Source: Asterias amurensis | Lineage: Eukaryota | Length of the DNA stretch: 64,000 nucleotides | Assembly (NCBI RefSeq): GCF_032118995.1 | Contig: NC_092661.1 | Span: 19,654,621 to 19,718,620 of the forward strand | Direction: 5' to 3' | Part shown: piece by piece, positions 3,853 through 56,639 of the stretch | Layout: every line of letters starts with the position of its first letter | Numbering within the stretch: position 1 is the first letter of the stretch | Position numbers and translations under genes: made by a program | Notes under the pieces: generated by a model | What the model was told of the DNA's origin: nothing | The model's input: only the letters and a program-made list of their open reading frames with translations | The model's database searches: none

Positions 3853-3854
3853 TA

Positions 3855-9188: not shown

Positions 9189-9387
9189 CTAAGGAAAAAG
9201 TAAAGAAAATCATAAATTAAGGAAATAATCAAGAAAACATAAAATATTATAACAATGTGACAATGTATTAACTGATATTCATTGAAATGATCGGAGTTGT
9301 CAATAGTTACAGTGGGATAAAAAATTACAGCAATTATTTATAGCAAGCTGCCTTGTAAAAGAGAAGATGATAAGTAAGTTATCTAAC

Positions 9388-9499
9388 CTTGGATTTATCA
9401 GTGGGATCCACAGGGCTGTCATTCTCTAGGAGAGCAGTGGCACACTTCACCCATCCATTGGCAGCGGAACAATCCAATGGAGTCCATAAGGTCTGGTTT
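9388..9499 (-). CDS. TRPA1: TRPA1-like ankyrin exon (NQTLWTPLDCSAANGWVKCATALLENDSPVDPTDKSK)
   Basis: Acceptor ttgttgattag|, donor CCAAG|gttaga. Confidence 0.7.
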
Positions 9500-9689
9500 C
9501 TAATCAACAACAAAAAGAAATGCACTTCATTATGACTCGGATTTTGAAAATAATGCAGTATTTCTTCAACCATAAATCCTTGAGAAAATGAGCACAAAGG
9601 TAACCATGTAGCCCACTTTTATCAATATTAAAATATACTTGGCTAAAAACCAAGAATGCCTTTAAAAGCAAACTTTATCAATGTAAACT

Positions 9690-10775
9690 GCTCACAAAAA
9701 GTAAGGAAACTTTTTTCAATCCAGTATATTTGTTGGTATTTATTACTCTCTTTGTATATGGTATATATAAATGCAAAGCTGAACTGTTCCTCTTTAAAAT
9801 GATACCACATTTGCAATGATTACATGTTGCTGAACTTGGCTACACGAATAACAATGAGGCAAAGTCACAAATCAAATGTGCCAAAATTACCGTTGTCTGT
9901 GAATGGTCAATGCTCAATAATCAAACCGATCAAGCTTTTCAGAACCATTAGTGGTTTACACAAAGATTGCACCAGTGAGCTCATCAGAAACAATTAACCC
10001 TCATCTCTTGAAAAAACACCTTGTTTGGTGGGTATTTGCAAGACGATATTCTACAGCCGATTGCAGTCCCATACTTGCAGACTCTTGGACCAAAATGCCA
10101 TCTTTCAAGATGACAACGCTCGCCCCCATCGAGCCCGACTGGTGACTGACTACCTGAACAAGGTTGGGGTGCACCGGATGGATTTGCCCGCTAACAGTCC
10201 AGATCTGAATCCCATGGAACATCTGTGGGACCAGCTTGGCCTCGCTGTCCGCGCCAGAACCACCAACACATCAACTTTGGCTGACCTAACCAGGTTCCTT
10301 AATGAAGAATGGAACGCCATCCCTCATCATCAGCGCATCACAAGACTTTTGTGCAGCATGAGAAGAAGGTGCCAGGCTGTCATCAACGCCTTCGGATCAT
10401 CCACTCGTTACTGAACTTCTATCAATTAAGTGTATCAAGATCAGTAAGTTGTCTTGCTCTATACCAAACTTCTTGTCTCAATAAAGTGGATTATGATCAG
10501 TAAGTTGTCTTGCTTGTTTCAGTTACAGTGTCAATTTGATTGTTCACACGGTAACACAAAACTGCTAATTTTGGCACATTTGATTTGTGACTTTGTCTCA
10601 TTCTCATTAACGTGGTCAAGTCCAGCAACATGTAATCATTGCAAGTTTGATATCATTTTGAAGAGGAACATGTCAGCTTTGCAATGATATATACCATACA
10701 CAAATAGAGTATTAAATAATAAAAAATATACTGGATTGAAAAACGTTTCCTTACTTTTTGTGAGCAGTTTAGCTC
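9690..10775 (+). mobile_element. Internally deleted Tc1/mariner-type DNA transposon with long (~200 bp) TIRs and a C-terminal transposase remnant
   Basis: ORF 10025..10414 has DDE-type transposase motifs (DDNARPH…, NSPDLNPMEHLW). Terminal inverted repeats ctgctcacaaaaagtaaggaaac…caatccagtatat at 9690-9735 and 10728-10775, with a nested second inverted repeat at 9780-9900 and 10560-10690. Intronic in TRPA1. Confidence 0.75.
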
Positions 10776-10849
10776 AGAAGCGTCACAGAATGAGGATGCT
10801 TGCTTTGAACTGAAACGCATTGTACGTATAAGTAATAACAATCAAATGG

Positions 10850-11170
10850 CCTCTAGCCACTGGGCTAGCTCAGTGGTCTAGTGGTAAGACATCTGCTCTA
10901 GCAGTGTAAAGGTCATGGGTTTGAATCCCACCCGAGTGATTTGCCAACACATAGGATTCAAACTTCCTCTAGCCACTGGGCTAGCTCAGTGGTCTAGTGG
11001 TAAGACATCTGCTCTAGCAGTGTAAAGGTCATGGGTTTGAATCCCACCTGAGTGATTTGCCAACACATAGGATTCAAACTGCCTCTAGCCACTGGGCTAG
11101 CTCAGTGGTCTAGTGGTAAGACATCTGCTCTAGAATGCAAAGGTAGTGGGTTTGAATCCCACCTGCGTCA
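10850..11170 (+). repeat. Three tandem copies of a tRNA-derived SINE head (gggctagctcagtggtctagtggtaagacatctgctctag…ggtttgaatcccacc)
   Basis: A/B-box-like tRNA motifs without a valid cloverleaf; a ~113-bp unit reiterated; related copies at 5396-5480, 12480-12560, 40200-40480, 56290-56470, 60115-60190. Confidence 0.7.
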
Positions 11171-11272
11171 TGTGCCTGTGGAAATATATCGGTGTAAAAA
11201 GAGTATAAAACAAACAATAAACCACTCAGATACAATATAGGATGGACTGATTTGCTTAATACCTTGCTTCTA

Positions 11273-11409
11273 TATCAGCACCAGCTGCAATTAGAGCTAG
11301 CACACACTTCGCATGACCCTCTGTAGCTGCTAGATGTAACGGAGAATTAGAGTTTTCATCTTCATCATTGATTCCTGTAATGTCTTGACGTACAAGCTCA
11401 TTTAGAGTG
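11273..11409 (-). CDS. TRPA1: TRPA1-like ankyrin exon (TLNELVRQDITGINDEDENSNSPLHLAATEGHAKCVLALIAAGADIEA)
   Basis: Acceptor tttttctgttcacag|, donor GCAAG|gtatta; close to the vertebrate TRPA1 segment LLQDISDTRLLNEGD…PLHLAAKNGHDKVV. Confidence 0.75.
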
Positions 11410-11737
11410 CTGTGAACAGAAAAAACATATCTCAATAGAGGGTTGCACTGATGGGAGGAAAATCTTATCAATTTCTGCTGGGACTGAAGAGTGGAGAAAA
11501 ATGCAATTAAGACAACAACATAAGTATTGCAGTAGTGTAATTAAAATCTTTCACAAATCTTCAGAAAACTGTCAACTGTACAAAGTGATCCATTTTGTAA
11601 CTAACAGGTTTTTTTATTGAAAGCTAGTCCTTTCTGTGGCTGAAGCTGATGCTTTAAATAACCTCAATAAAAATAATCTACAAAAGAAAGACATTCCAAC
11701 AATGCTCCAAAATGCCATAAGTTTGATATTTGCTTAC

Positions 11738-11826
11738 TGGACTCGTCCATGCTTAGAAGCAAGGTGTAACGCTGTCTGCTCCTCCTCATTCTTAGCTTCA
11801 AGACTGGCTCCTCTTTCCAGTAAAAT
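11738..11826 (-). CDS. TRPA1: TRPA1-like ankyrin exon (ILLERGASLEAKNEEEQTALHLASKHGRV)
   Basis: Acceptor ctttcatgatag|, donor TCCA|gtaagc; phase 2 into the next exon gives H+TLNELVRQD. Confidence 0.7.
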
Positions 11827-12176
11827 CTATCATGAAAGTACACAAAAATATCACCATAAATTGAATAACCCCAAATCAATCGAGAAACTGGTATTAGCTG
11901 TTGCAAACAACTTACCAACCAAATTGCCCCATGGTTTAAAGGCAAACAATAGTTAATGGCCTGGCGTTTCGACCGACCCTAAAAGAGTCTTTCTCGAAGG
12001 CAAAATGACAACACAACAGACATGAACAGGTTGTAACATACCCAAAACAATTGATTAGTTGTAATACTTACACAACAAGTGATTTTATAAGTACAAAACT
12101 GCTCATTGTATGGTAACAAATTGCTTCTCACTTACCTCAAGCTCACATAATTAATGTTAAATGATTAAGGTAGTAC

Positions 12177-12290
12177 CTTGACTATTTGGATGTAACCTTT
12201 CTCAGCAGCAATGTGTAAGGGTGTGTTATTGTAGCGATCTGATTCCATCAATAGCTTCTTGGCTTTGTGTTTACGATGGTCAAGCAGAAC
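12177..12290 (-). CDS. TRPA1: TRPA1-like ankyrin exon (VLLDHRKHKAKKLLMESDRYNNTPLHIAAEKGYIQIVK)
   Basis: Acceptor tcgttgcag|, donor CAAG|gtacta. Confidence 0.7.
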
Positions 12291-12721
12291 CTGCAACGAA
12301 AGAAAACAAATTCAGTTCTCTTTTTAGATAGTTTAATTAGATTTGTTTGTTTCTTTTATATTCTTGGCAAACGGCCAAATTAAAGTAAAAACTACAGTTC
12401 ATACAAAAATTAGTTTACATACAAAAAAGTTACAATATAAAAATATACAGCTTACAATGAAATAGCTCAAACCTTGATCTGCAGATTGGCTTGGTGGTAT
12501 TTTTCCCAGCCTTTTACCCTGGTTCAAATCCCACCTTGGACAGAGCCTCCAATTTGGATTAAATTTTCAGTCCCAACCTGATTGAGTGTTTTTTTCTTCT
12601 AAAACTTAATATTTCTACATTGTTTCTCAACACAGGTATCTTCAGCCTATTGCTTGTTGCTTTCTTGGTTCAAGTACCCGAAAGATTGAAAATAAAATGA
12701 AAATAAATTAACTCAGCTTAC

Positions 12722-12905
12722 AGTTAAAGCCTGGACTTCATTTTCTTGAGCAGCCCAATAGACAGCACTCTTCTCATGTTTATCAACAGCTCGAATATTT
12801 CCACCACGTTTAAGGAGTTCAGCTATTGTTGCACTGTGTCCATTACTTGCAGCTATTAGCAATGGGGTGAAGTTGTCCTTATCACGACGCTCTAACTTGG
12901 CTCCA
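12722..12905 (-). CDS. TRPA1: TRPA1-like ankyrin exon (SGAKLERRDKDNFTPLLIAASNGHSATIAELLKRGGNIRAVDKHEKSAVYWAAQENEVQALT)
   Basis: Acceptor ttgttacag|, donor AACT|gtaagc; phase-consistent. Confidence 0.7.
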
Positions 12906-13385
12906 CTGTAACAATAACAAAATGATTCAAGTAAATTGATGTAAGCTACAACTGTAGTGGCGTGTTAAAAACTCAAATCCTGGAATTTCTGATCAGCAGA
13001 GTGTGGGTTTGAGTCCCGGTCATGAAACTTTTAAGCAAGAGTTAGACACTTAACCTAACCATTATTGCTTCGTCCTTCGAGTGGGACGCAAAGCCGTAGG
13101 TCTTGTGTGTTGTATAGGGCACATAGAAGAACCCAGTGCAACTACCGTTAAGAGAAGCGGTTCACTCTGGTGTTTCTAGTTTGATTGGCACTTTGATTTG
13201 ACAGCACCTTGGTCTCACACTTCAAAGCGTAGCTCTGCATACCTTGCAAGAAAAAATACTGGGTGCTTTCAGACACCCATCAGGTGCGATAGCTCTATAA
13301 CAACTGCCTAGTAATAGTTCATTATAAAGTCGAGAATCCGACATGTGAAGTTTTCTACGAGAATAAAACCTAGTCCAATATGTAC

Positions 13386-13589
13386 CTCTTTATCAGGAAC
13401 TCTACCACATGCTGCCGGTTGAATGCACAGGCACGATGAAGCGCTGTGGCTCGTTCTGCATTAAGGGCATCAATCCTTGCTCCTCGCTGCAGCAACAGCT
13501 TAACAATGTTAAGATGACCGGCGGCTGCTGCTACATGAAGGGATGTATTACGCTGATAATCAAAGGTGTTCACATTGGCACCTGTAAAT
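13386..13589 (-). CDS. TRPA1: TRPA1-like ankyrin exon (ANVNTFDYQRNTSLHVAAAAGHLNIVKLLLQRGARIDALNAERATALHRACAFNRQHVVEFLIK)
   Basis: Acceptor tttacag|, donor AAGAG|gtacat; ankyrin consensus. Confidence 0.75.
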
Positions 13590-13801
13590 CAACATCATGT
13601 AGAATAAGAGAGTGTAAACTTTGTGAACTATCTAAGACTAGTGTATGGAAAAGACAAAAGGCAGAGAATTTCAATTGGGGGGGGGGGGGTTATAAAGATA
13701 AGATAATATAAAAGTTAAAAATCAAGCTCTCTATAAGATAGATTTGGTTACAAGCAAAGAAGATAGTTAAAGATATACACTTGTTTAAAAATATTAGTTA
13801 C

Positions 13802-13895
13802 CTTTCTCCAGACACATCTGCACAATCTCCTGTTTCCCACTATCAACTGCAACATGGATGGCTGTGTTCAATTCCACATCACGGTCTGTTAACAT
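13802..13895 (-). CDS. TRPA1: TRPA1-like ankyrin exon (MLTDRDVELNTAIHVAVDSGKQEIVQMCLEKG)
   Basis: Acceptor gttacag|, donor GAAAG|gtaact; phase fits both neighbours. Confidence 0.7.
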
Positions 13896-14126
13896 CTGTA
13901 ACATTCACATAATGTGTATAAATCAACTCTCAAAATAAGTAAAAAAACAACACAGTCACAATCTGCTTTAAAGCATAATAGCAAACCTGTAGTCTTGTTT
14001 TGATTAAAAGTAATGAACAATGTCATAGACAAGAAAACCGACAAAAGTTTTCGCCAAACAGATTGCATAGAATTTGCTTCATATTATTTGCTGCCAGCCA
14101 TTAGGCTACTATTTCATGATTTTTAC

Positions 14127-14336
14127 CTGGCTCAATATTCCTTGGTTCTCCCCAGCAGCGAACAGCAGTTGGACGATTTTGATATGGCCTTCTGTGCAGG
14201 CAACTAACAATGGGGTATTGTTCTCCTCATCACAGCATCTCAGTTGCGCCCCTTTTTCGATCAGCATTTTGGCGACTTCCAGATTGCCATGGGTACAGGC
14301 CATATGAAGAGGAGTCATTAACTGCTTGTCTACTGC
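14127..14336 (-). CDS. TRPA1: TRPA1-like ankyrin exon (AVDKQLMTPLHMACTHGNLEVAKMLIEKGAQLRCCDEENNTPLLVACTEGHIKIVQLLFAAGENQGILSQ)
   Basis: Two ankyrin repeats; acceptor acctacag|, donor GCCAG|gtaaaa. Confidence 0.8.
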
Positions 14337-14444
14337 CTGTAGGTTAAAGGTCAGTCAAATACTTGAACTTGGTTTAACTATGGCATGTTTTATTCGAATA
14401 GCTTTTTTAAAGAAACTGAGAAAGACTATTTTAAACTGAGAAAT

Positions 14445-14748
14445 ACCTCAAAGAGAATCTTGTTGGAAGAAAGAAGTTCCTTCGCAGCGATATCATTTCC
14501 CCTCATAGCTGCAAAATGCAGCGGACTTTGACCATAGATATCTTGTGCGTTTATATCAGCACCAGCAGACTCCAAGAATGTAATGATACCAGTTGTTTCA
14601 TCAGTAGCATCTTCATCATCCTCATCATCGTCTTCGTTACCGCCATCTTGACCCGATACCACAGCCGTAGCCGTTGCTTTATTAGGACGCTTGCACCGAG
14701 CAGCAAAGTGGATAGGTGTTGTGTTATCATCACCTTTGTTTCCAGGGT
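14445..14748 (-). CDS. TRPA1: TRPA1-like ankyrin exon (DPGNKGDDNTTPIHFAARCK…acidic DDDEDDED insert…SPLHFAAMRGNDIAAKELL)
   Basis: Acceptor tccctag|, donor TTTGAG|gtattt; phase 1 in, phase 0 out; consistent with flanking exons. Confidence 0.75.
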
Positions 14749-15507
14749 CTAGGGATCAAAGATAATCCTGTATAATTAATCTCAATGTGTATTAGGATGG
14801 ATTGATTTGGATTATATCAACTGAATTAGTTGCTTAAACGAGGCTTTGAAATATGTAGGCTGTTTGACCCACTTCAGGACGCCCAGTGCACTTACAGGCA
14901 CCCGTCCTGTCTGTCATTTTGGGAGTCAAAACTTAGACAGAGGAGTCGATTCCCAAATGGCAGAAATTGTAGGTGCATTAGATGGAATGCATTCCGCGTT
15001 GTGCAAGGAACCAGTTGGATGGCAACAAACCATTTCCACAGAGTGATAATGTGTAGAGCAGTAAAATGGTACTTCTGATATCAGGCTTATGAACTTTGAA
15101 CTCAACAAACTGCTGAAGTTGCCAACAAGAAACTGAACAAACTGAAAGATTTTACCTAAAAAACAACACTCTGATCCCATATTGTAGTGTGTGCTCCAGC
15201 ATTGGGAACTTGTTAATGACTTTGTTCCCTTTTGACACCAAACAAAGATTGTTTGAATAATTCGCAAGACTTGAGTACATATCTAATGAGTTGGGAACAA
15301 GAAAATCATTCAGTTCAAGATGTGATGCCACTTACTGGAACTGTGGGAGACCTTTGGGGGCGCTAGAAGGCTCAGACTCACCAGGTTAATAAATACATTT
15401 TTAAAAGATGTGGTAAGTCTGCTGCCACCTAGCATTCAAAAGTCCCCCGTTAGTGAAATAAAGAAAGCTGAAGTGGAGACTCCCAATTGCCCAATAATGT
15501 TCTCTAC

Positions 15508-15676
15508 CTGCTTGGTGTTTGATGAGTAGTTTAACAATCTCGATGTGGTTGTAACGTGCTGCATAGTGGAGAGCACTCAGATTATTCTCATCTAGTTTGT
15601 TAACACGGCGACGTTTATTGGAGCCAATCTGCTCCAAATATCGCCGCATCGTCTCCACTTCTCCATCTCTGGCTGC
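15508..15676 (-). CDS. TRPA1: TRPA1-like ankyrin exon (AARDGEVETMRRYLEQIGSNKRRRVNKLDENNLSALHYAARYNHIEIVKLLIKHQA)
   Basis: Polypyrimidine-AG acceptor, CAG|gtagag donor; ankyrin consensus (LH-AA--GH---V-LL); resembles the start of the vertebrate TRPA1 ankyrin domain. Confidence 0.75.
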
Positions 15677-18521
15677 CTGAGGAATGAGGAGAACAATTTT
15701 ACAAAATAATGGTCGCTATTCATCCTATTCCATAAGAGTGTCAATTGGGAAGATTCTCTGCACCAAAAATTATGACATTGTTGGGGGTACATGTATGCTG
15801 CAAATGATTGTCATTAATACTTGCTTTATGATTGTAAAATGGGACAGTTACATCCAAGACTAATCTTGAACAGCCAGTTATTTCTACAGACACCCACACA
15901 CACCAACTTATTCTAACCCCATAAATTCTTTTTGTTCATCCATTGCCTGGACTTTTTGTTAGTGATGTCCCTACTGATTTTAGCGAGGTGCCCGGTTCCC
16001 TTTTGTTACAGTCTTCAGTATCAAGGAGTTGACACAACTTTCTAACTGTCATTTCTGAACAAAGAATGTTTCTTTGTGCTTCCGATTTGTTATAATCAAA
16101 CATATTATTTTATTTTCAGTTACACATCAAGTTATTTAAAAAATAAACTCTAACCAAATCAAATGAGTGTTTTCTCGTTGTAGGCTAAACCCAATAAATT
16201 GAAAATGATATAGTCTAAAATAAAACTTCTATTTGTTTGTGTGATGTTTTACATGCTCATTAGAGATGACTTGATAATTTGATCAACATACAAATATTTA
16301 AAACTGCCATCAATCAAATATGTGTGATAAACAATCTAAAAGTAGCCCCCTATTGACCCCTTGCACGTGCGTCACACGCGGCGACCATGTTGGTGGGCAG
16401 TTAGGTTTACGTGTATTAACGCCGCATCGCCTAAAATGCACACTTCACTGCATAACGCACAGCATAGAGTTATATAGAGATATATGAAAACGCACAGTGC
16501 AATTGCCCACCAGTATGGCGCATTCAAGATTTTTCTTCTTTGTCAGGTGAAATGGGTCAATAAACACTTCCCCAAATGAGCGTGTTTTCTATAAATCATT
16601 AGTCTCATACTCCTACTCTGACTAAGGACTAACAGAGAAGTAGATGTCTTTCCATGGTTCTTTCAAATTTGATTGAGGGCATCAACAGTATGCAATGGTT
16701 GGATGGGTGATCAAACATTAGTACAACAAGACTAATCTATCAAACTAATAAACCCCAGATGACTGTGGTTCTTCTCTGTATAAGGGTTTGTTTGTATAGG
16801 TATAACATCCCACTATCTCAAGGGGGCCATTGTATAATGTGTGGATATCATAGCATGCTCAATCATCAATGCTAAGATTAATGAGAAATGGACTTTGGTT
16901 TTTAATCATCTAAAGTGGCACCATCCATTTTTTGCTGTTTTTTAAACATTTTTAATGAATTTTGACAGATCATTGCTGATTTAAATTGAAAAGTATAAAA
17001 CAACTTTCGCATTCATGCTAAGGGCAATGCACAAAATATACAATCCATGTGCAGAATTATAAATTGTGAAGCAATGTTAATTAACTACCACTAATCATAT
17101 TGCATCCATGAACACTTTAATCTTTTCTGAACCTTGATGTAAATGTAGTACAGAACTGAAATCAATTTTGGGGGTCAAATCGGCCAAAAAGTTTACCTAT
17201 AACTTCTTTTTATTTATTATGTACACAGATTACCTTGTCTTACTAACTACTCTTATTAAAATTAATATGATAAGTTTAAAGATTATTTTCCTCATGGCCA
17301 CTTTAATGTGATTAATTTGTTCAAAAGCTGAATGCTAAATCTAATAGTGAATCCTTTTATCATGCAGCATATAAGCCTACTTTGAATTAATCATACTGAT
17401 GGCCATAACCCAAGTATCTAAATGAATTGGCAGTTGGCCTACATCACGTCCATTCATGTTACATTTGCAACCTGTTTATTTGACTAGACAGTTTGTTGGT
17501 ATGTTCAGGATATGAACTATTGGTTTCTAGCCAACAATTCCCTTTCATCTCACTGAGTCAGAATCTATACACAAACTTTTGTACCCTTGACCTCAAAAAT
17601 AAAAAAACACCAAATTGAATAAGTTCAACTAAGCATAAAATTGAAATCAGGAACTAAATCGAAACAAGTGTAAAGTAAACAGCGAATCCTATAAAATCAG
17701 TTTTTCAAAAGCTTTTTTGTTTTTTGTTTTTTTCCTGTAGTTTTTCTGTGCATGGCATCCATTTCGCATTTGAATGGCAGCCTTTGATTTCCAGCATTTC
17801 AAATACAACTTTGTGATTTGTATCACTTAATTTCATGGTTATTGTGGTTTTTAATTATATTTTGTGCATCTATTTGTGTAAAGCTACAAAGAGCTTGTTT
17901 TACTATAGTATTATTATTATTACTAATTTCATTGTGAATATTAGCATTTTCGTTGTTATGAAATATGCACCCATGGTAACAAATTGCAGGTAGACAGGAT
18001 GTCATGAATAAATTGCAAAACTTCCCTATTTCATGTGGAATATTGACTTGTGAAAAGCTAATGGACTAGTGAAATAACAAGTTATCCTGCTGGCTAGTTA
18101 CTAAGTAAGAAGGTTAAGGGCAAACCCTGTATCCATAGATGCATGGAGGAAGGAAAAGATAAATCAATTTTCAATGCCATATTTCCAGGTTATTTGATCT
18201 GTTACTTTAACTTGTATTTAATGAGCGTCTTCCCACCTTATTTAATCACATAAAATAATATTTTTCAAAAGGAGAAAAACATGCAATAATGTGGAAAACA
18301 TAACAGTTACCCTTCCTCAACACACTCTGTACTCCAAGGCATTAGTAGGCTATGATTCATGATCAGAATGAATCACATTTTCCATGCAGGTTGTATGCAA
18401 TCAGGGTTTACACAGTGATGGGGCATTTTATCAACGATCAATCATTGATATGAAGACAGTAAACCAGTGGCAGCTTGGTCAGTGATGGGGGGATTGCAAA
18501 GTAAAATGTTAAATGTTATAT

Positions 18522-20100
18522 TTAAGCTTGGGCGATATTGATTTATTTTATTCACGATATATTGCGGACAATATATCACGATCTTCGATATAATCGCGAT
18601 TAATTAAATTTGACATCATCAGTTCTCAAACTCCCAGTGAAAGTTGTAGAAGAGACAGTCTCAGCAAAAGAGAGGTGTTCTAATGACCTATTCTTCTGGT
18701 TTTACTCCAAACATATGGGGTGCAAGCAGCGGCGTAACTAGACATTTTCATTTGGTGGGGCAAGTGGGGGCAAAGATTTAATTTGGGGGGGGCCAAAGAA
18801 GTGCAAGATTATTATTAAATATGTTAACTGATATATAGTTGATACACACCAATGCAGTCCTAAAACAGTCTACCTGGTCAGCACAGCAGGTAACAAAAGA
18901 TTGCGAAAACAACAAAATCTTAGAGAACTTGTCATTTTGTATTTTATAAGATAAAACTTTTCGACTGTATAAAAGGATTAAATTACCAACTGTGATCAAC
19001 TGTGGGTGTGTAAATACCCAAAACATAATAATATTAGGCCAAGTAAAAATAGAAAAATAGAAATGTTTAGCGTCCCCGCCCGACACCTTTTTTTTCTTAA
19101 GTTTTTTTTATGCACATTATTCTTTTTGTTTTTGTTTTGAAAAAGGGTTACTTTAAATGATCTCAGCAAAAAAAAAACAATCTGTATGTCTTGTCTGAAT
19201 GCCTGGACCAAACTGTTTCATTAATGTTTTGTGTATTTCAGCAGCAGAAAATACAATGGATATTTGACATTCATGGCGGCCATCTTGAAATAAAAAATAA
19301 AAAGCCCCTCCTCCTTCCTTTTTTTGAGAAACCCAGATACTAAACATGTTTCTTTTTGTTACTCGGCCTTATTGTAACAAGTGTAAGCCATCAAAAAAAA
19401 AAAAAAAAAAATACAGGATTGAAATTGTGGGTGTTTAATAATCACATTTTAGTTATGAAACGGATATTTCAAATAGGCCTTCCTCTAAATTGCAGCGCTT
19501 GCTTCAAAGGAGAAGAAATGGTCTAAGCAACCTTATTCGCTGGCCATTTTGCTGTAGTAAATTTCTCTGTAGTGCATCGGACCATGGTTCTACCTCCATG
19601 ATCTGACTAAGTTGTGTTAACGGAGCTATTGGTCTGCATTCAGACCACTTTGTCACATCCTGTACTCTCTGTAACCGCAAAACCACAACAAACATTTACC
19701 GCCAATACGATCGCGCGCGCGTTTCCACGCATTTTTCATGTTATAGTCCACATACTGAAATGAATAAAAGTTTTCATTTTTATGGCAGCATTTTATGCAG
19801 TTTTAAACGATTTATATATTAGGAATATAAGAATATACTTTTCTCTGATTCCATATGGGGGGGCAAGAGGGGGGGGGGGCAAGGGTTCTGAGCGGGGGGG
19901 CGCCGGCCCACCCTGCCCCCCCTCTGGTTACGCCACTGGGTGCAAGATGTCTCACCTAGAAAATACATCCCGATATTGCGATATTTAATTGATATCGCGA
20001 TATATTGATATTTCGATTAAAAACAAATCGATCCGATATCGAAATCGTTTCCAAGTTATTATCGCGATATTCGATAATATCGTGATATCGCCCAAGCTTA
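18522..20100. mobile_element. Non-autonomous hAT-like DNA transposon (TIR taagcttgggcgatat…atatcgcccaagctta) with 8-bp TSD gttatatt
   Basis: Perfect 16-bp TIRs, identical 8-bp direct flanks at 18514-18521 and 20101-20108, no long ORF inside; G-rich internal repeats. Confidence 0.7.
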
Positions 20101-20851
20101 GTTATATTAATTGTATTGTAGATCACACTCAATGACTGTGTTTTCTTTTACAAACTGTTTGGTTAGTTTCTATCGAAAGTCACTTTTCCAGTCATAAGGA
20201 TTTTCAAAAATTCTTATCAGATTTCATTTTGGCTTTGGGGTTGTCATGGTTACTTTTTATTTGTGATATAATCAGAATTGATCCCTTGCACGCACGTCAC
20301 ACGCGGCGACTGTGCCACGCTCACCAAATTGGAGGGCAATAGGTTTAGGTGTAAACGCTATGTGGCCTAAAATGCGCACTTCTACCTTACATACACCCCA
20401 ACCACCGCTATCCCAACCCCGACCACGCCCCCACCAGCTTTCCCCAGCCTGCTCCATGAATATCATACAATAATACAGTAATGACAAGAATCACACAAAA
20501 ATTCCATTTAATATAAAAACTAATTCAAATCACAATATGGTTCAAAATACTTTTTTAAGCCTCCTGGGATAGGCCTACAAGGGGTTACCTACTAATTGAC
20601 TGGGTCGATGGTCTCGCAGCTGGTATGAACAATTATAAAGTGTTGCTGCACAGAAAAATGTGTGTTCCAAATGTGTGCAGTGAAACTGTTTTCGGTTAGA
20701 TATGCTTTAAAAATAATAATCAGTCAATTTTCCAAAGCAGACTGCCCCTTTTTCATTCATTCAAAAAACAAAATAGCATCTTTTATGATTGCTTTCGGTA
20801 ACAAATGAGTGAATAAATTTAGTTTATTTATTATGCATATATGATATATAC

Positions 20852-21505
20852 CTGATGTATACTGATGAGATTGGCAAGATCTTCAATACTTTCAGATGCT
20901 GCCAGTCCTCCTCCTAGACCATCTGCAGCATCCAGCTCTGCCTGTGTAGGCCAGTTACGAGCATAATTTTTGGCTCTACGATTCGAATCATCATCACTAT
21001 CTCCACTTCCATGCTGTCTCTGCCATGCACTCATCTCCACCGTGTCTTCACGGTCCAGTCCGCCGTTGAATGTCGGCATATTCCCGGTAGATGATGACAC
21101 GGATGCTAACCTGTTGTCACTACTCCTCGGGGAGCTCTCGCTGCGTGATGGCGATGGCGACGGGGCAACCTTACCAGACCTCACTGTTGACACTCTAGTC
21201 GGTCTTAAATCCACTTTACTTATGCTTGCAATACTACCCTTGGACGCAGAAGATCGTATTTCAGAACTACTAGAATCCTTGGCAGTTAGCCAAGCCTGAG
21301 TAATGGATTGTTTTCTTGATGTGTTTCCGGAAACGTCGCCAAAATCACCGGGAAGATCGTCGTCATCGACGGGTGCCGCGTAGGCGATAGGTGGTAGGTC
21401 CTTTGCTGCTTCGGCCACAAGCAATGCCTCTGTGTCACTGTCACAGGAAAGATCAGAGATAGGGCAATTTCCTTTATTATCGTCCTGTGAGAATATCTGG
21501 CTCAT
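20852..21505 (-). CDS. TRPA1: TRPA1-like channel, coding exon 1 (Ser-rich disordered N-terminus, MSQIFSQDD...ISIHQ); donor CATCAG|gtatat
   Basis: 218-aa ORF from ATG, ends at a canonical GT donor, phase-compatible with the next ankyrin exon (…IHQ|AARDGEVETMRRYLE). Confidence 0.5.
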
Positions 21506-28891: not shown

Positions 28892-29926
28892 GTGAGTATG
28901 AAATGCGACTAATATAAGTGTTTTTTTTGGATGAAATATAAAAAATGGTGACAAGTGAAGTTTTATCTTACTACTGCCCAACTCTGGTCTGCTGCTGATT
29001 GGCATGACACTCTTCTCCGTCCATCTGGTATTCATAATCAACATAAATTGATTGAGAAACCATGCCAATTTCATGTGTGTTTTCTGCCAGAAACTGGCAA
29101 CCTGTCATTTAGTTATTGTTTAGGGCCTACTTTTAGTTTTTTTTTTTTAGTATAGTCATTTTATTTCTAGCCACACTTGTGTGGTCAAGGATAGCTGAAT
29201 CCAGCTGTCCTTGGTCTTGGCCACACAAGTGGGGCTAAATCATTTCTTGACATTTCATATTTAATATAAATAATTTTCATAAATACATAGTTCGATAACC
29301 AAATCTTCTAGGAAGAGCACGGATTTGATCTTCAATGGTGTAATTAATCAGTTAACACTACACATAAAGAAAATATTTTGAATAAATTACCAGAATTTTC
29401 ATGAACCTAACTATTAACCTAAACGCTAGTTGATGTTTTTTTAACTTCTCACTTGCAACATATCTATCAATCACTTCAGTGTAAGAAAACTAATTGACGA
29501 GAGCCACACCTACACAGTGGTTTATTTTATCCTGGTTGGTTGAGTTGAGATTTCGTTCAGAAATCTGAGGTTCAAAAAAATACTTTTGTGCGCATAAATT
29601 GATTTTATTATCGTCACTTTTTTTCCCGAAATTGTTTTTCTAACATAACAAATAAATCAATCAAATTTAAAATTCAAACAAGTTTAACAATATGAGGCAA
29701 AGGTTTATAGAAAATTTTGGTACTTTTTTTTTTGGGGGGGGGGATAATACCCCCACAACTATGCCTCTATTTGTGAGATTATTTTGCAATGAGATTGCAA
29801 AATTAGAAAGGTTAATTGTGGAGGCAGACAGTTCACTTGTGTCAAAGGTAATTGTATGACAAAAAACTAAAGAAACAACTTCAAGTTTAAAAAAAATGTA
29901 TGTAACGGAAATTAAAGAATTTCACT

Positions 29927-30300
29927 TAAAGCCATGTTACACTTTCGGTAAACAGTATTGTCCAAGTCCCACACTTCGTGTATCACAACTAATATATAAA
30001 ATGACAATCCTGTGGAAATTTAGGCTCAATCGGACATCGGAGTCGGGAGAAAATAACGGGAAAACCCACTCCTGTTTTCGCGCGCTTCGCGATGTTATGA
30101 CATGTGTTTATAACAAATCCGTAATTCTCGCTAACGAGAATTTATATTGTTTTACCGTTTTCTCAAAAAGTAAAGCATTTCATGGACTAATATTTCAAGA
30201 GAAGTCTTTCACCATTACCTTCTGTAAACCCTGTAAATTATTTGTAAATCTGTGAACTTTTTTTTTTTTTTCCTGTACCGAAAGGGTCCAATGGCTTTAA
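29927..30300. mobile_element. MITE copy B of the same family (TIR …ccgaaagggtccaatggctttaaag)
   Basis: Aligns along its length with 1022..1399; sits in SEC63 intron 1. Confidence 0.7.
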
Positions 30301-35689: not shown

Positions 35690-36760
35690 CATATCTATTA
35701 ACCCTCCTTGTGCTGTTTGTCCTTTCAATGTCATTCACTGTGGTTTGGAATGATAGATGAAGTAGAAGTAGGTCTTCCTGCAATATGATATCATGTCCAT
35801 TGTCCACAAAGCTCTAAATGGCAAGGCTCCCCACTATATTTCTGAACTGCTTCAAGTTTACACTCCATCAAGGAATCTTCGATCAAGTTCCATGCTTCTC
35901 CTCATTGAACCCAAGTCTCGACACTCATGGGGTGACAGGTCTTTTTCTTCAGCCGCCCCACGCATCTGGAACTCTCTACCACTTAATCTTCGATCTTGTG
36001 TTAGTACCGCAAAATTCAAGTCTCTTCTCAAAACTTATCTTATGTCACAGGTTTTCAATGACTAATTTTGTTGTGTCTGTTTTTCTTTGTGTTGTGTTTT
36101 GTTTTTGTTTTGTTTTTGGTTTTTACTGCGCCTTGAACACCCAGCAGGGTGGATATGTGCGCATTACAAGTCTTATTATTATTATTATTATGTATTGAAT
36201 GTATCAATGCAGTACATAGTCAACCCTCCTACTGTCTGATCATTAAATGTCATCCACTGTGGTTTGGAATGATGGATGAAGTATGTCTTCCTGCAATATG
36301 ATATGTGTTGAATGTATCAATGCAGCACATAGTCAACCCTCCTACTGTCTGATCACTAAATGTCATCCACTGTGGTTTGGAATGATAGCTGAAGTATGTC
36401 TTCTTGCAATATGATATCATGTGTTGAATGTATCAATGCAGTACATAGTCAACCCTCCTACTGTCTGATCATTAAATGTCATCCACTGTGGTTTGGAATG
36501 ATAGATGAAGTATGTCTTCCTGCAATATGATATGTGTTGAATGTATCAATGCAGCACATAGTCAACCCTCCTACTGTCTGATCACTAAATGTCATCCACT
36601 GTGGTTTGGAATGATAGCTGAAGTATGTCTTCTTGCAATATGATATCATGTGTTGAATGTATCAATGCAGCACATAGTCAACCCTCCTACATTTCAACCA
36701 CTAAATGTCATCCACTGTGGTTTTGAATGATAAATAAACTGTATAAGCCTGGTATATGAT
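35690..36760. repeat. Tandem repeat, ~120-bp unit ×~5 (…gtcaaccctcctactgtctgatcattaaatgtcatccactgtggtttggaatgatagatgaagtatgtcttcctgcaatatgatat…)
   Basis: Direct periodicity; SEC63 intron 9; interrupted by the SINE insertion. Confidence 0.85.
35793..36200 (+). mobile_element. SINE-like element with an (ATT)n tail, inserted into a 120-bp tandem-repeat unit
   Basis: Carries the widely dispersed pseudo-ORF motif …PSRNLRSS…GDRSFSSAAPRIWNSLP…FKSLLKTYL typical of Deu/CORE-type SINEs; interrupts a repeat unit between …gatatcatgt and gttgaatgtatc…. Confidence 0.55.
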
Positions 36761-37031
36761 GTGGTGAATGTATATCTATACAGCACACTGTCAACCCTCC
36801 TACTGTAATGCAATGTTTTGTAAGGCGCATAAACTAGACCACTCTGCAATATGATATGTACACAGTTAGTTCCATGCCTAGTTGTGCCACCATACACAAC
36901 CCTTGCTGCTGAATGGTTTTAAATGGTGGGTCAACTTAGTGGAAATGTTACACAGAGTAGGAGAGTTTTAATTTGAGATGACTTGACTATAAGGATGTAC
37001 ATGACATAACTGTTTTGTGATGTGTGTTTAG

Positions 37032-39694: not shown

Positions 39695-39772
39695 GTGTTG
39701 GATGATGAAAGCAATGATCCAGTAGATGCTGTGGAAGACGCTGTTGTAGAAGACACATTAGATGAAGATAAA
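39695..39772 (+). CDS. SEC63: SEC63 exon 16 (VLDDESNDPVDAVEDAVVEDTLDEDK)
   Basis: Acceptor ttttctatgtag|, donor ATAAA|gtaaga. Confidence 0.65.
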
Positions 39773-40129
39773 GTAAGACTAGAACCTAATTGTCTTGATA
39801 AGAACTAAATCTTCAAGTTAGACTTCACAAACAAGATCTTCAACTTTCTCAATTGCAACTTTTTAATTTAGATTGACGAGGGTTGTTGTTAACACGCATA
39901 CCCCATATCCACCTGACTTGTCACAGAACATGAAAACCAATCCTGGCTAAGCCCATTGAGGGCTTTATTACTGCATTTCAAGAAACACTCATTATTAACT
40001 GCTTTGCAAATAAACATATCCCAACAAACTGTGTACTGTTGGAAAGAGTACATAAATCTCTCTTATGTGATAAGTATATTTTATAAGAGATGTTAGATTT
40101 GCATCCGGGATAAAGAATATTAATTTTGG

Positions 40130-40575
40130 TTTTACCCATACACCGATGTGTGTTAGCACTGTATATTCAGTACTTTCCCGAGTCCTGTGAAAAATAAAAA
40201 TCACAGGCATGTTACTCGGGTGGGATTCGAACCCACGACCCTTGCAATTCTAGAGCAGTGTCTTACCAACTAGACTACAAAGGTTGCCCGGTAGCTGGAG
40301 GCAGTTTGAATCCTATGTTTTGGCAGTGGGTACCGCAACGATATAAGAGATGTTAAATTTGCAGGTACCCGCTGCCAAAACATAGGATTCAAACTGTCTC
40401 TACCTACCGGGCAACCTTGGTAGTCAAGTTGGTAAGACACTGCTCTAGAATTGCAAGGGTCGTGGGTTAGAATCCAACCCGAGTTTACATGCCTGTGATA
40501 TTTTTTTACAGGACTCGGGAAAGTACTGAGTATACAGTGCTAACACACATTGGTGTATGGGTAAAAACAAAAATT
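40130..40575. repeat. ~440-bp near-perfect palindrome built from two head-to-head tRNA-SINE copies
   Basis: Left arm 40130-40335 is the reverse complement of right arm 40365-40575, with very few mismatches; SEC63 intron 16. Confidence 0.85.
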
Positions 40576-40749
40576 AATATTCTTTATCCCCGATGCAAAG
40601 TATATTTGAGCAAGTCGGCTAATTTTGATTTACAGATTTGACTGTCTGAAGAATCGAGTGAATAACAAAAACCAATATTTCATGTTGACACCAACTTGAC
40701 TGCAATCAAATCTTGAGTTGTTGATGATTCATGTTGCATTCCTCATCAG

Positions 40750-40965
40750 ACTGATTCACCAGTACCACACAAACCCAAGACTCATGTTTGGGAGAAACAC
40801 AGAAGAAAAAAGAACAAAGGAGGAGGAGGAGGAGCTAAGAACAAAGCCCAGAAGAAGCAGGCTACTAAGAAAGCAGCCGCAGCAGCAGCACTGAAAGCAG
40901 CGGAGGAATCACCTCAACACAATGGCAAAGGAGCCGCTAACCATGTTAGCAATAATACTAAAGGG
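40750..40965 (+). CDS. SEC63: SEC63 exon 17, basic Lys/Ala-rich segment (TDSPVPHKPKTHVWEKHRRKKNKGGGGGAKNKAQKKQATKKAAAAAALKAAEESPQHNGKG…)
   Basis: Corresponds to the basic KSKKKKPLKKK region of vertebrate SEC63. Confidence 0.7.
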
Positions 40966-41937: not shown

Positions 41938-42328
41938 GGTTTTTAAAGACACTGGACACGATTGGTAATTATCAAAGACTAGTCTTCCCGCTTGGTGTAT
42001 CTCAACAAATGCATAAAATAACAAACTTATGAAAATTTGAGCTCAAACGGTTGTCAAAGTTGCGAGAAAAAAATGGAAGAAAAAACACCCTTGTCACACA
42101 AAGTTTTGTGCTTTCAAACGCTTGATTTCAAGACCTCAAATTCTAAATCTGAGGTCTCGAAATCAAATTCGTGGAAAATTACTTATTTCTCAAAAACTAC
42201 GTTACTTCAGAGGGAGCCGTTTCACACAATGTTTTATACTATCAACCTCTCCCCATTACTCGTTACCAAGTAAGGTTTTATGCTAATAATTATTTTGAGT
42301 AATTAACAATAAAGTCCACTGCCTTTAA
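41938..42328 (+). mobile_element. MITE family 2 copy (SEC63 intron 18)
   Basis: Same TIRs and internal hairpin. Confidence 0.8.
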
Positions 42329-42439: not shown

Positions 42440-43019
42440 CATTTTTTACCAAGAGAAGATATTAATAGCATATTTGTATCTCTCTGTTGCCGTGACAGTG
42501 ATGATAATAAAGGAAGATATTAATAGCATATTTGTATCTCTCTGTTGCCATGACAGTGATGATAATAAAGGAAGATATTAATAGCATATTTGTATCTCTC
42601 TGTTGCCATGACAGTGATGATAATAAAGGAAGATATTAATAGCATATTTGTATCTCTCTGTTGCCATGACAGTGATGATAATAAAGGAAGATATTAATAG
42701 CATATTTGTATCTCTCTGTTGCCATGACAGTGATGATAATAAAGGAAGATATTAATAGCATATTTGTATCTCTCTGTTGCCATGACAGTGATGATAATAA
42801 AGGAAGATATTAATAGCATATTTGTATCCCTCTGTTGCCATGACAGTGATGATAATAAAGGAAGATATTAATAGCATATTTGTATCTATCTGTTGCCATG
42901 GCAGTGATGATAATAAAGGAAGATATTAATAGCATATTTGTATCCCTCTGTTGCCATGACAGTGATGATAATAAAGGGGATATTAATAGCATATTTGTAT
43001 CTCTCTGTTGCCATGACAG
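42440..43019 (+). repeat. Minisatellite, 55-bp unit ×~10 (gaagatattaatagcatatttgtatctctctgttgccatgacagtgatgataataaag)
   Basis: Each unit reproduces the SEC63 exon-19 acceptor (ccatgacag|TGATGATAATAA); only the last copy opens a reading frame. Confidence 0.9.
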
Positions 43020-43161
43020 TGATGATAATAACAGCAGCGATGGTGGAGAGCAAGAGGAAGAAGAATGGGAAAGGTTACAGTCTGGGATCACAAGGAAAGA
43101 GAAAGTTCTAGAAGGAACATCTAAGACTTCTCATGAGGTCCATTGTCCATACTTCCCGGAG
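43020..43161 (+). CDS. SEC63: SEC63 exon 19 (DDNNSSDGGEQEEEEWERLQSGITRKEKVLEGTSKTSHEVHCPYFPE)
   Basis: Matches …EAEWQELQQSIQRKERALLETKSKITHPVYSLYFPEE; the acceptor is the last copy of a 55-bp tandem unit. Confidence 0.75.
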
Positions 43162-51059: not shown

Positions 51060-51770
51060 CTTTGGTGAAAAAGAAATGATAAGTTTTTAAATTCAACCTT
51101 TCAAAGAAAGTCGTATAGCTTTTTGCAGTTTATTTATAATGACTCAATATGATAGTTCTTAAATTGTTGGCGTGTCATGGTAGAGTGGTTAAGAGCACTG
51201 GATTCAAGCTCTGGTGTTTCTGATCAGCAGAGTGTTGGTTCGATTCCCGGTCGTGACACTTGTAACCTTCAGCAAGATACATTACCATGATTGCTTTGTC
51301 ATTCAGATGGGACATTGAATCGTTGGTAGTGCACACAAAAAACAGAACACTTATCAAGAAAGATTAGGGGTTAACCCTGGTGTTTCTGTTTGACATAGCT
51401 GTGATTGAAATACCGTTTATTATTATAGCAACCTTTCAAAGAAAGTCGTATAGCTTTTTGCAGTTTATTTATAATGACTCAATATGATAGTTCTTAAATT
51501 GTTGGCGTGTCATGGTAGAGTGGTTAAGAGCACTGGATTCAAGCTCTGGTGTTTCTGATCAGCAGAGTGTTGGTTCGATTCCCGGTCGTGACACTTGTAA
51601 CCTTCAGCAAGATACATTACCATGATTGCTTTGTCATTCAGATGGGACATTGAATCGTTGGTAGTGCACACAAAAAACAGAACACTTATCAAGAAAGATT
51701 AGGGGTTAACCCTGGTGTTTCTGTTTGACATAGCTGTGATTGAAATACCGTTTATTATTATAGCAAGCAC
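51060..51770. repeat. Tandem duplication, ~335 bp ×2, each containing a tRNA-SINE fragment
   Basis: Identical 60-aa artefact ORFs at 51175-51357 and 51510-51692; SFT2D intron 2. Confidence 0.85.
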
Positions 51771-53638: not shown

Positions 53639-54027
53639 CTTAAAGGCAGTGGACACTTTTGGTAATTACTCAAAATAATTTTTAGCATACAACCTTACTT
53701 GGTAACAAGTAATGGAGAGCTGTTGATAGTATAAAACATTGTGAGAAATGACTCCATCTGAAGGAACATAGTTTTTGAGAAAGAAGTAATTTTCCATGAA
53801 TTTGATTTCGTGACCTCAGATTTAGAATTTGATGTTTCAAAATCAAGCATCTGAAAGCACACAACCTCGTGTGACAGGGGTATTTTTTGTTTCGTTATTA
53901 TCTCGCAACTTCGACGTCCAACTGAGCTCAAATTTTCACAGGTTTGTTATTTTATGCACATGTTTAGATACACCAAGTGAGAGACTGGTCTTTGACAATT
54001 ACCAATGGTGTCCAGTGTCTTTAAGAA
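53639..54027 (-). mobile_element. MITE family 2 copy, reverse orientation
   Basis: Same TIRs and internal hairpin. Confidence 0.8.
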
Positions 54028-55564: not shown

Positions 55565-56639
55565 GTGAGTGTGTGACTATATATTCCCTCAGGTTTTGTT
55601 TAGTTGTATTTCATTCCTAAAGCTCTAACATGCATTGTAACCGATGAAGATTGTTTGCAAACTGTTGCCTCAGCTCCTAGTGTTGTACTAACCAAGTCAA
55701 CCAAAAAATAAATAATAAAATGAAAATTTTCAAGAGCATTTCACTTCTATCAAATTTTTACAAAATGCCCATTGCGATTTGTGTTCTCCAATATTTAGTT
55801 CAGAAAAGGTCATATTCTGGAATCTACATTCATGCAAATTGCTTTCTTATTAACTCCGAGCTCAGAAATTCTATTACCTTGAAAAAAAAACACCCCACAT
55901 TGTTCTCAATCTCAGTATTTTCCTCAAGATTGGACCCAGAGAGATTATGAAAAAAAATCCTTTTGTTCAGTTAGAACATTCATCAGGATTTGGAATGTTC
56001 AAACCCTCATCTGTTATGAGCTTGGTACAATGCTTCTTTCTCATGTTGCTTTTCTCCCGGCCAAATGAGTACCTAATCACTTTTCGTCTTTTCAGACCAT
56101 CTTACGCATAAGCCAATAAGATACCTTTAATTAATTTTGCATCAATCTCCTCTAGTTCATGTTAGATGACCTGAATCTAATTTAAAAACCTCCCATTGTG
56201 TTCGTGAGCAAGAATATAATGTAATAAATCTAATTTATCAAGAACAGACAACAAGGGAAACTGACTGAACTAATACATGTTCAGCAATATTGGCTTCTTG
56301 TCACTGGGCGCACTCGGATGTCTAGTGGTTAAGACATCTACTCTAGAATCCAGTATTGTAACTGGCTTCTTGTCACTGGGAGCACTCAGTGGTCTGGTGG
56401 TTAACACACCTGCTCGAGAATGTAGGGGTCCTGGGTTTGAATCCAAGCCGAGTAGTTTGACATTAGACTTTTTCACAGTACCCAGGAACTGCTGATTATA
56501 GAGTGCTTATCACACATCGGTATAGGGTAAAACACCATGACAATATACCTAACGATATGTCAAACTAGCTGTGACATGTTTGGTTAAATCAACCCCTTGC
56601 CATTGTTTATCTTACATTTATTTATTTAATCTATTTCAG

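Follow-up and report, generated by a model that had tools for sequence, protein, structure and literature searches.

Insertions of LINE-1 (L1) elements that are inverted at their 5' end were reportedly attributed by Ostertag and Kazazian in 2001 to twin priming. In twin priming, one end of a staggered break primes at the 3' terminus of the RNA and the other end at an internal position of that RNA; joining of the two cDNAs leaves the 5' portion inverted relative to the 3' portion. One target-site duplication encloses both portions, and microhomology and a minor overlap or deletion are frequent (PMC2912911). In a survey of 5'-inverted L1s, inversion was found in about 31% of human L1 insertions, versus only one 5'-inverted Alu (PMC2912911). 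Where retrotransposed pieces are joined, a same-orientation junction is read as template switching or ligation, and an opposite-orientation junction as twin priming (PMC13174262). Twin priming and inverted intronic SINE pairs are already well known; twin priming of SINEs mobilised in trans is less common, and a search of the searchable literature returned no description of twin-primed copies of a tRNA-derived SINE. Here we describe a palindrome in a 64-kb stretch of genomic DNA, analysed as a whole and called the window below. It was probably produced by one LINE-mediated retrotransposition of a tRNA-derived SINE, by twin priming on a two-monomer template. The locus is a fresh instance of a known mechanism, not a new kind of element, and a two-monomer template that turns the inversion into a nearly complete palindrome is unusual.

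The inverted repeat spans 502 bp and lies far above chance, with arms of ~240 nt each (Table 1) and a loop of 20-29 nt between them. The repeat finder resolved four ungapped collinear blocks of 121 nt (93%), 71 nt (94%), 36 nt (94%) and 21 nt (90%). A gapped alignment of the two arms matched at 224 of 244 columns (91.8%), the remainder being 14 mismatches and 6 gap columns. An earlier reading of this DNA, made from its letters alone and called here the sequence-only reading, had described a near-perfect palindrome of ~440 bp at 40130-40575 with arms of ~205 bp. The inverted repeat is real, but "near-perfect" overstates an identity of ~92%, and both the span and the arms proved longer than given. 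That reading had also proposed that arms far below 95% identity would count against it; at ~92% they fall slightly under this value, not far under. The feature is a genuine imperfect palindrome, larger and less perfect than first described. The expectation of a long hairpin was borne out by fold prediction, which gave one long hairpin both as RNA (−407.3 kcal/mol, z = −41.4) and as DNA (−252.6 kcal/mol, z = −43.6); in neither case did any of 100 shuffled sequences reach that stability.

Table 1. Coordinates, in window positions, of the composite SINE insertion and its host intron.
Feature	Position	Strand	Basis or remarks
SEC63 host intron, 977 nt	39773-40749	+	AG/GT exon boundaries, spliced peptide alignment
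Left target-site duplication AAGTATATTT	40072-40081		Adjoins canonical 3' end of antisense monomer
Full-length antisense SINE monomer, 260 nt	40082-40341	−	TCGTTGC-GGTACCC...tRNA-like...body...GATGCAAATCTAACATCTCTTATA; collinear with independent consensus
tRNA-like region, antisense monomer	40219-40278	−	Rfam RF00005, 40.7 bits (gathering score 29)
3' tail fragment of upstream monomer, 22 nt	40342-40363	−	Minus strand TGCAAATTTAACATCTCTTATA, unit positions 230-251; head-to-tail with antisense monomer
Sense SINE segment, 236 nt	40364-40599	+	Unit positions 1-236; aligned to independent consensus
tRNA-like region, sense segment	40414-40486	+	Rfam RF00005, 39.3 bits
Right target-site duplication AAGTATATTT	40598-40607		First two bases (AA) overlap sense-segment end
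Imperfect palindrome, whole	40098-40599		Arms 40098-40338 and 40359-40599; repeat finder, gapped alignment, folding

The palindrome lies in an intron of a SEC63 homologue encoded on the + strand at ~28.8 to 45.1 kb of the window, where the sequence-only reading had placed it. Collinear exons were revealed by tblastn with two queries, human SEC63 (its first ~397 residues identical to database protein P0001) and SEC63 of a closer relative (P0079). The joined exon peptides matched named SEC63 proteins at E ~1e-96 and contained DnaJ and Sec63 Pfam domains; the best named matches were only 50-57% identical and were spread over several phyla. The exons on either side of the palindrome (39695-39772 and 40750-40965) have canonical AG/GT boundaries, and their spliced translation was collinear with residues 211-281 of P0079 (E = 5e-14). 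The location in SEC63 is upheld by the named homologues, the Pfam domains, the splice sites and the spliced translation. The insertion, at 516-518 bp, makes up 53% of the intron, and the palindrome ends 150 nt upstream of the SEC63 3' splice site. The window as a whole is eukaryotic, with a GC content of 37%, a CpG observed/expected ratio of 0.47 and interrupted exons. A search for the orthologous site yielded a single contig of a relative (L001, from ENA); it aligned with the window at exon 1 only (81% identity) and is without a SINE copy.

Other repeats were observed in and around the same gene. A minisatellite at 42455-43031 (58-nt unit, 10.0 copies, 97% identity) runs into the SEC63 exon at ~43020-43160, and each unit combines a pyrimidine tract and CAG with ~12 nt from the start of the exon that follows (...tctctctgttgccatgacag / TGATGATAATAA). 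Because the unit includes the splice site, the 3' splice site of this exon is multiplied ~ten times in tandem, and because 58 is not a multiple of 3, an upstream copy of the splice site would shift the frame. Another SEC63 intron contains a LINE-like C-terminal ORF (35793-36065; ...FKSLLKTYLMSQ...) followed by a 113/229-nt tandem repeat (36186-36806). The two may possibly represent the 3' end of a LINE with a tandem-repeat tail; a BLAST search with the SINE against the window yielded no match of its tail to this region (35793-36806). A dispersed repeat family with near-identical spurious ORF translations has inverted members at 42037-42273 and 53695-53931, ~11 kb apart, one of them in a SEC63 intron, and a separate dispersed family, likewise with near-identical spurious ORF translations, occurs at 1142-1354 and 29896-30255. 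Upstream of SEC63 and on the opposite strand lies an ankyrin-repeat (TRPA-like) gene (9379-21505, minus strand), with a Tc1/mariner transposase remnant (10025-10414, + strand) in one of its introns. A 78-nt satellite at 1677-3853 (27.9 copies, 93% identity, 389-nt higher-order period) contains long spurious minus-strand ORFs.

The arms had been read as head-to-head copies of a tRNA-derived SINE, and both the Rfam tRNA scores and alignment to family copies and a consensus agree with this. Each arm exceeded the Rfam tRNA gathering score, the two on opposite strands with their 5' ends facing the centre (Table 1); ARAGORN made no tRNA call in either arm. In the antisense copy the A box (TAGTCTAGTTG) and B box (GGTTCGAATCC) are intact and consensus-like, and in the sense copy the B box is mutated to GGTTAGAATCC. 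By the Rfam scores and these motifs, the arms contain the tRNA-related part of a tRNA-derived SINE, including the A and B boxes recognised by RNA polymerase III, and a leader of ~57 nt lies 5' of the tRNA-like part. The unit also conforms to a SINE in being short, non-coding, dispersed and multi-copy, with variable 5' truncation and target-site duplications.

Inside the window we found only partial relatives of the SINE, namely a tandem array at 10842-11163 and a 74%-identical copy at 56389-56532, and the family's true ends are thus not definable from the window. Public metagenome contigs scanned with a 25-nt pattern from the SINE body gave a family set of 16 loci (L002-L017), all in GenBank assembly JACSEG01, with copies 83-95% identical to the palindrome arms; viral contigs scanned for the SINE body gave no match. 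The JACSEG01 contigs share at least one further repeat family with the window, which argues that they derive from a related organism, one not demonstrably of the same species. A consensus was built from these 16 loci only and is therefore independent of the palindrome. A LINE carrying the SINE's tail was found neither in the 64-kb window nor in the recovered loci.

The family data defined a SINE unit of 258-260 nt. The full-length 5' start, at ~TCGTTGC, was seen in L005 with a 10-bp duplication. The 3' tail reads ...GATGCAAAATTAACATCTMTTA and has two natural termini, a short one (...AAAATTAATAT(T), ~unit position 218) and a long one (...CATCTMTTA(A), ~251-253), the latter seen in L004, L007, L015, L003 and L010. 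The 5' ends of the family copies lie at unit positions 19-162, and duplications of 9-13 bp flank the copies in L004, L005, L008 and L012. In five of the 16 loci (L016, L014, L013, L009 and L003), two monomers are joined tail to head (...CATCTMTTAWA / TCGTTGC GGWACCC): the sense end of one monomer, ...GATGCAAATYTAACATCTMTTA(WA), is followed directly by the TCGTTGC-GGWACCC start of the next. This junction is the same as the internal junction in the window.

Two further tRNA-like arrangements were observed in the window. The array at 10842-11163 (116 nt x 2.8, 95%) consists of tRNA-like units with linkers homologous to the SINE leader; its third unit runs into an internally deleted SINE body, and the array lies inside the minus-strand ankyrin-repeat gene. 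At 51094-51766, a 335-nt unit is repeated 2.0 times at 100% identity, and ARAGORN called a tRNA-Leu(CAA) in each copy (51174-51259 and 51509-51594); Rfam at its gathering score did not report these two calls. Because positions 12-334 of L006, in the JACSEG assembly, are 72-77% similar to the 335-nt unit, it is more than a local duplication and belongs either to a repeat family that is dispersed or to a conserved neighbourhood of tRNA genes.

Alignment of the insertion to the independent consensus revealed two pieces that abut. The minus strand of 40084-40363 gave one collinear alignment of 280 nt, running from unit position 230 across the monomer junction to 249 (91.4%, E = 1e-113), and the + strand of 40364-40599 aligned with unit positions 1-235 (90.3% identity). 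The sequence-only reading had two SINEs split by a spacer of ~30 bp. This claim did not hold, because the supposed spacer (40335-40363) by itself matches consensus positions 258-230 (E = 8.5e-7) and is made up of tail sequence from an upstream monomer and the 7 nt with which the antisense monomer begins. At the inversion junction, between 40363 and 40364, no target DNA separates the antisense piece from the sense piece. Next to the duplication, the antisense piece ends in the family's canonical long 3' terminus (...CATCTCTTATA / AAATATACTT), which is also found at the window's internal monomer junction. The sense segment begins 7 nt short of the monomer's 5' end and stops at ...GATGCAAA, a non-canonical 3' terminus shared by 0 of 13 other 3' ends examined in family copies. 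In template coordinates, the sense segment corresponds to 1-236 of an upstream monomer, and the antisense piece to 230-251 of the same upstream monomer plus a complete downstream monomer. That is, a two-monomer template is covered once, with a 6-nt overlap (TGCAAA) and just its first 7 nt missing.

A direct repeat of 10 bp, AAGTATATTT, brackets the whole composite. It is identical in both copies, short and AT-rich, and too short for dating the insertion. On the + strand of the 64 kb this 10-mer occurs just twice, at 40072 and 40598, and as a measure of chance, a shared flank 10-mer at such spacing is seen at 0.12% of the positions in the window, or at 0.39% when only AT-rich flanks are counted. 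The repeat fits the family, because simple copies are 5'-truncated to varying degrees and carry 9-13-bp duplications, as in LINE-mediated target-primed reverse transcription. Taken singly, the two pieces lack flanking duplications: sequence at 40081 does not match that at 40364, nor does sequence at 40363 match that at 40600. Because a single target-site duplication surrounds the composite, the data indicate one insertion event, not two. At the internal priming site, GATGCAAA and AAGTATATTT share only 2 nt (AA) of possible microhomology. A 22-mer at 40082-40103 (TATAAGAGATGTTARATTTGCA) recurs as a direct repeat at 40342-40363 (21/22 identical). We ruled this 22-nt repeat out as a target-site duplication of the left copy, whether from nested insertion or from 5' transduction, because it is the element's 3' tail as found at the monomer junctions of family members.

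We propose the following course for twin priming at this locus. Both ends of a staggered target break would have primed reverse transcription on two head-to-tail SINE monomers, present either as a dimeric transcript or as two RNAs linked when the reverse transcriptase switched templates. Priming at the canonical 3' terminus (...CUCUUAUA) would have been by the + strand 3' end at ...AAGTATATTT, and the first cDNA would have run through the entire downstream monomer and on into 22 nt of tail from the upstream one, yielding the antisense sequence at 40082-40363. The other target end would have primed internally at GCAAA of the upstream monomer, with AA as possible microhomology, and the second cDNA would have extended almost to the 5' end of that monomer, giving the sense sequence at 40364-40599. 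The cDNA ends would then have been joined between 40363 and 40364, and the 10-bp staggered cut would have left the flanking duplication. With one event, the site before insertion would have read ...GTGATAAGTATATTTGAGCAAG... with a single AAGTATATTT. Because each piece holds nearly a whole monomer, such an insertion would be an inverted repeat with arms of ~240 bp.

A single duplication lies around the composite and none around either segment, one segment ends at the canonical 3' terminus beside that duplication, and the segments would be neighbours in one template, with a small overlap, provided that the template was a two-monomer RNA. Support for such a template comes from the dimer junctions in 5 of 16 loci. 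Twin priming is favoured because the locus matches both the published definition (PMC2912911) and the junction-orientation rule (PMC13174262), and because the same architecture recurs in three members of the family set. In L015 (338-591), inverted unit positions 19-139 and direct positions 142-251 are contiguous in the template and lie within one perfect 12-bp duplication (TGGCATATTCTT). In L003 (882-1288), 1.17 units are inverted relative to direct positions 164-251, again with one perfect 12-bp duplication (AAGGCTAGGCGT), and in L006 (1317-1340) a 15-nt inverted tail fragment is found directly upstream of a full-length head. The junctions differ between these loci, which indicates separate events and not copies of one composite master. 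The reverse assignment, in which the sense piece is primary, fits twin priming as well; it is less likely because it calls for a template of >2.1 units, for the loss of 7 nt where the pieces meet and for a primary priming event away from the canonical terminus.

Inverted SINE pairs from independent insertions are common in SINE-rich genomes, and two such insertions, head to head and ~30 bp apart, were the implicit model of the sequence-only reading. The arms differ by 8%, as two family members would, and the 22-nt direct repeat (40082-40103/40342-40363) resembled a duplication of the left copy before the family data. However, the 22-mer is element sequence and is present at the tail-to-head junctions of five other loci, and one duplication brackets both copies in place of one per copy, with no target DNA between their 5' ends. 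In template coordinates, moreover, the non-canonical end of the sense copy falls within 6 nt of the antisense 5' limit. We consider independent insertions improbable, and that model is largely refuted. Less probable still is an inverted duplication of one older SINE at the DNA level, through replication or repair fold-back or template switching, or through snap-back self-priming of cDNA. Although fold-back mechanisms give palindromes with short unique loops, and the 8% divergence could reflect age, they would copy an arm symmetrically, whereas here the outer ends differ, the left one being 16 nt longer and reaching the canonical terminus. The centre is the family's tail-to-head junction and not arbitrary loop sequence, a flanking direct repeat of 10 bp is not expected around an inverted duplication, and partial, non-palindromic inversions with single duplications, as in L015, cannot be fold-backs.

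A DNA transposon of the foldback or MITE type, with the ~240-bp arms as its terminal inverted repeats and a 10-bp duplication made on insertion, is a very unlikely reading of the locus. Long inverted arms and a short flanking duplication would suit one, the duplication length being known for some DNA transposon superfamilies, but the termini are not mutual inverted repeats, the left 16 nt (TATAAGAGATGTTAGA) being without a counterpart on the right. Each arm is instead a normal copy from a retroposed family whose members are 5'-truncated to varying degrees. The composite junction did not recur at any of the 16 loci, a small sample from a related organism in which the L006 junction differs. Palindromes can arise from amplification or from long-read library chimeras, and a chimeric fold-back read or a collapsed repeat could place one in an assembly. 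Fold-back chimeras, however, give essentially identical arms, and those observed here differ at 20 columns including indels; the coherent ends, the duplication, the canonical splice sites around the insertion and the analogous structures in an independent assembly make an artefact more unlikely again. We give the least credence to a functional hairpin under selection, whether as the gene for a miRNA or endo-siRNA precursor or as a structure that regulates splicing. The hairpin is predicted to be very stable and lies 150 nt from a 3' splice site, and Rfam miRNA-precursor matches were seen at its centre, but these were sub-threshold (mir-942, 47 bits versus gathering 100; MIR399, 35.7 versus 57) and reflect generic hairpin shape. 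In an Rfam search at a permissive threshold, no curated miRNA-precursor family reached its gathering score at the palindrome. Every arm mismatch breaks a pair, and the origin of the hairpin is fully explained as a by-product of insertion.

Comparison with the independent consensus assigns the 20 alignment columns at which the arms differ to private changes, 7 in the antisense copy and 13 in the sense copy. At 11 more positions the two arms are alike against the consensus, so both monomers belong to the same sublineage. The differences between the arms were either already present in the template or accumulated after an old insertion.

In SEC63 pre-mRNA, the predicted fold should yield a ~240-bp duplex with ~92% pairing, so that over half of the intron would sit in a self-contained hairpin that is spliced out. 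Inverted Alu pairs suggest, by analogy, that the SEC63-intron hairpin is a candidate substrate for ADAR editing or for Dicer. Fragility, recombination and endo-siRNA production, which had been raised in the earlier reading, are plausible on the same kind of analogy. For inverted Alus in yeast with a 12-bp spacer, rearrangement falls ~15-fold at 94% identity and ~58-fold at 86%, and recombination is down 300-fold as the spacer grows from 12 to 100 bp (PMC10164571). At ~92% identity, the palindrome is probably much less fragile than a perfect one, by 15-58-fold if the yeast data apply. Most likely the palindrome has no adaptive function, and the locus is probably neutral.

On this reading, the locus shows at base-level resolution how twin priming on a multimeric SINE template can turn a single retrotransposition into a long palindrome. 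The usual interpretation of such palindromes is a pair of insertions or a rearrangement of the DNA. The correct reading matters for the dating of insertions, for event counts and for the origin of intronic sequences that form hairpins and are potentially fragile or dsRNA-producing. We also raise, tentatively and with more doubt than confidence, the idea that this SINE family and its LINE partner make head-to-tail and 5'-inverted composites far more often than known SINEs mobilised in trans. Inversions were present in 2-3 of the 16 sampled loci and dimer junctions in 5 of the 16; in human and chimpanzee, by comparison, a single Alu out of thousands is inverted. If true, the family would systematically seed the introns of this genome with long hairpin-forming palindromes and would offer a natural system for twin priming in trans and for dsRNA load. 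This family-level frequency of composites, if confirmed, would be more interesting than the single locus.

Set beside the known systems, the locus shares features with several. Multimeric tRNA-derived SINE families likewise join a tRNA-like head, which contains A and B boxes, to a body unrelated to tRNA and a tail that is not poly(A), together with dispersed 5'-truncated copies, 9-13-bp duplications and tandem tRNA-like arrays related to the SINE (here 10842-11163); the leader of ~57 nt before the tRNA-like part sets the present family apart. As with inverted Alu pairs (IRAlus) in human introns and UTRs, two SINE copies in opposite orientation share a Pol II transcript, where their pairing into a long RNA duplex is predicted. 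IRAlus, however, normally come from independent insertions, each with its own duplication and hundreds of bases away from the other, whereas the locus described here points to one event and has effectively no spacer. As DNA, the locus resembles the quasi-palindromes whose fragility has been studied (PMC10164571, PMC3855049). The same-orientation junction within the antisense piece, from tail to 5' start, is like those of U6/L1 and Alu/L1 template-switch chimeras (PMC13174262), as would follow if the reverse transcriptase had passed from the 5' end of one RNA to the 3' end of a second, except that both partners here are the same SINE and that a transcribed genomic dimer would give the same junction.

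The closest likeness is to 5'-inverted L1 insertions. In both, a single duplication surrounds two oppositely oriented segments, one of which ends at the canonical 3' terminus; the other would have been primed internally, perhaps with microhomology, and in the template the two would be neighbours that overlap slightly (by 6 nt here). The differences lie in the template, which in SEC63 would have been a short tRNA-derived SINE mobilised in trans, with a 3' terminus that is not poly(A). Importantly, a template of two monomers would make the two segments homologous and their inversion a palindrome, whereas an inverted L1 forms none.
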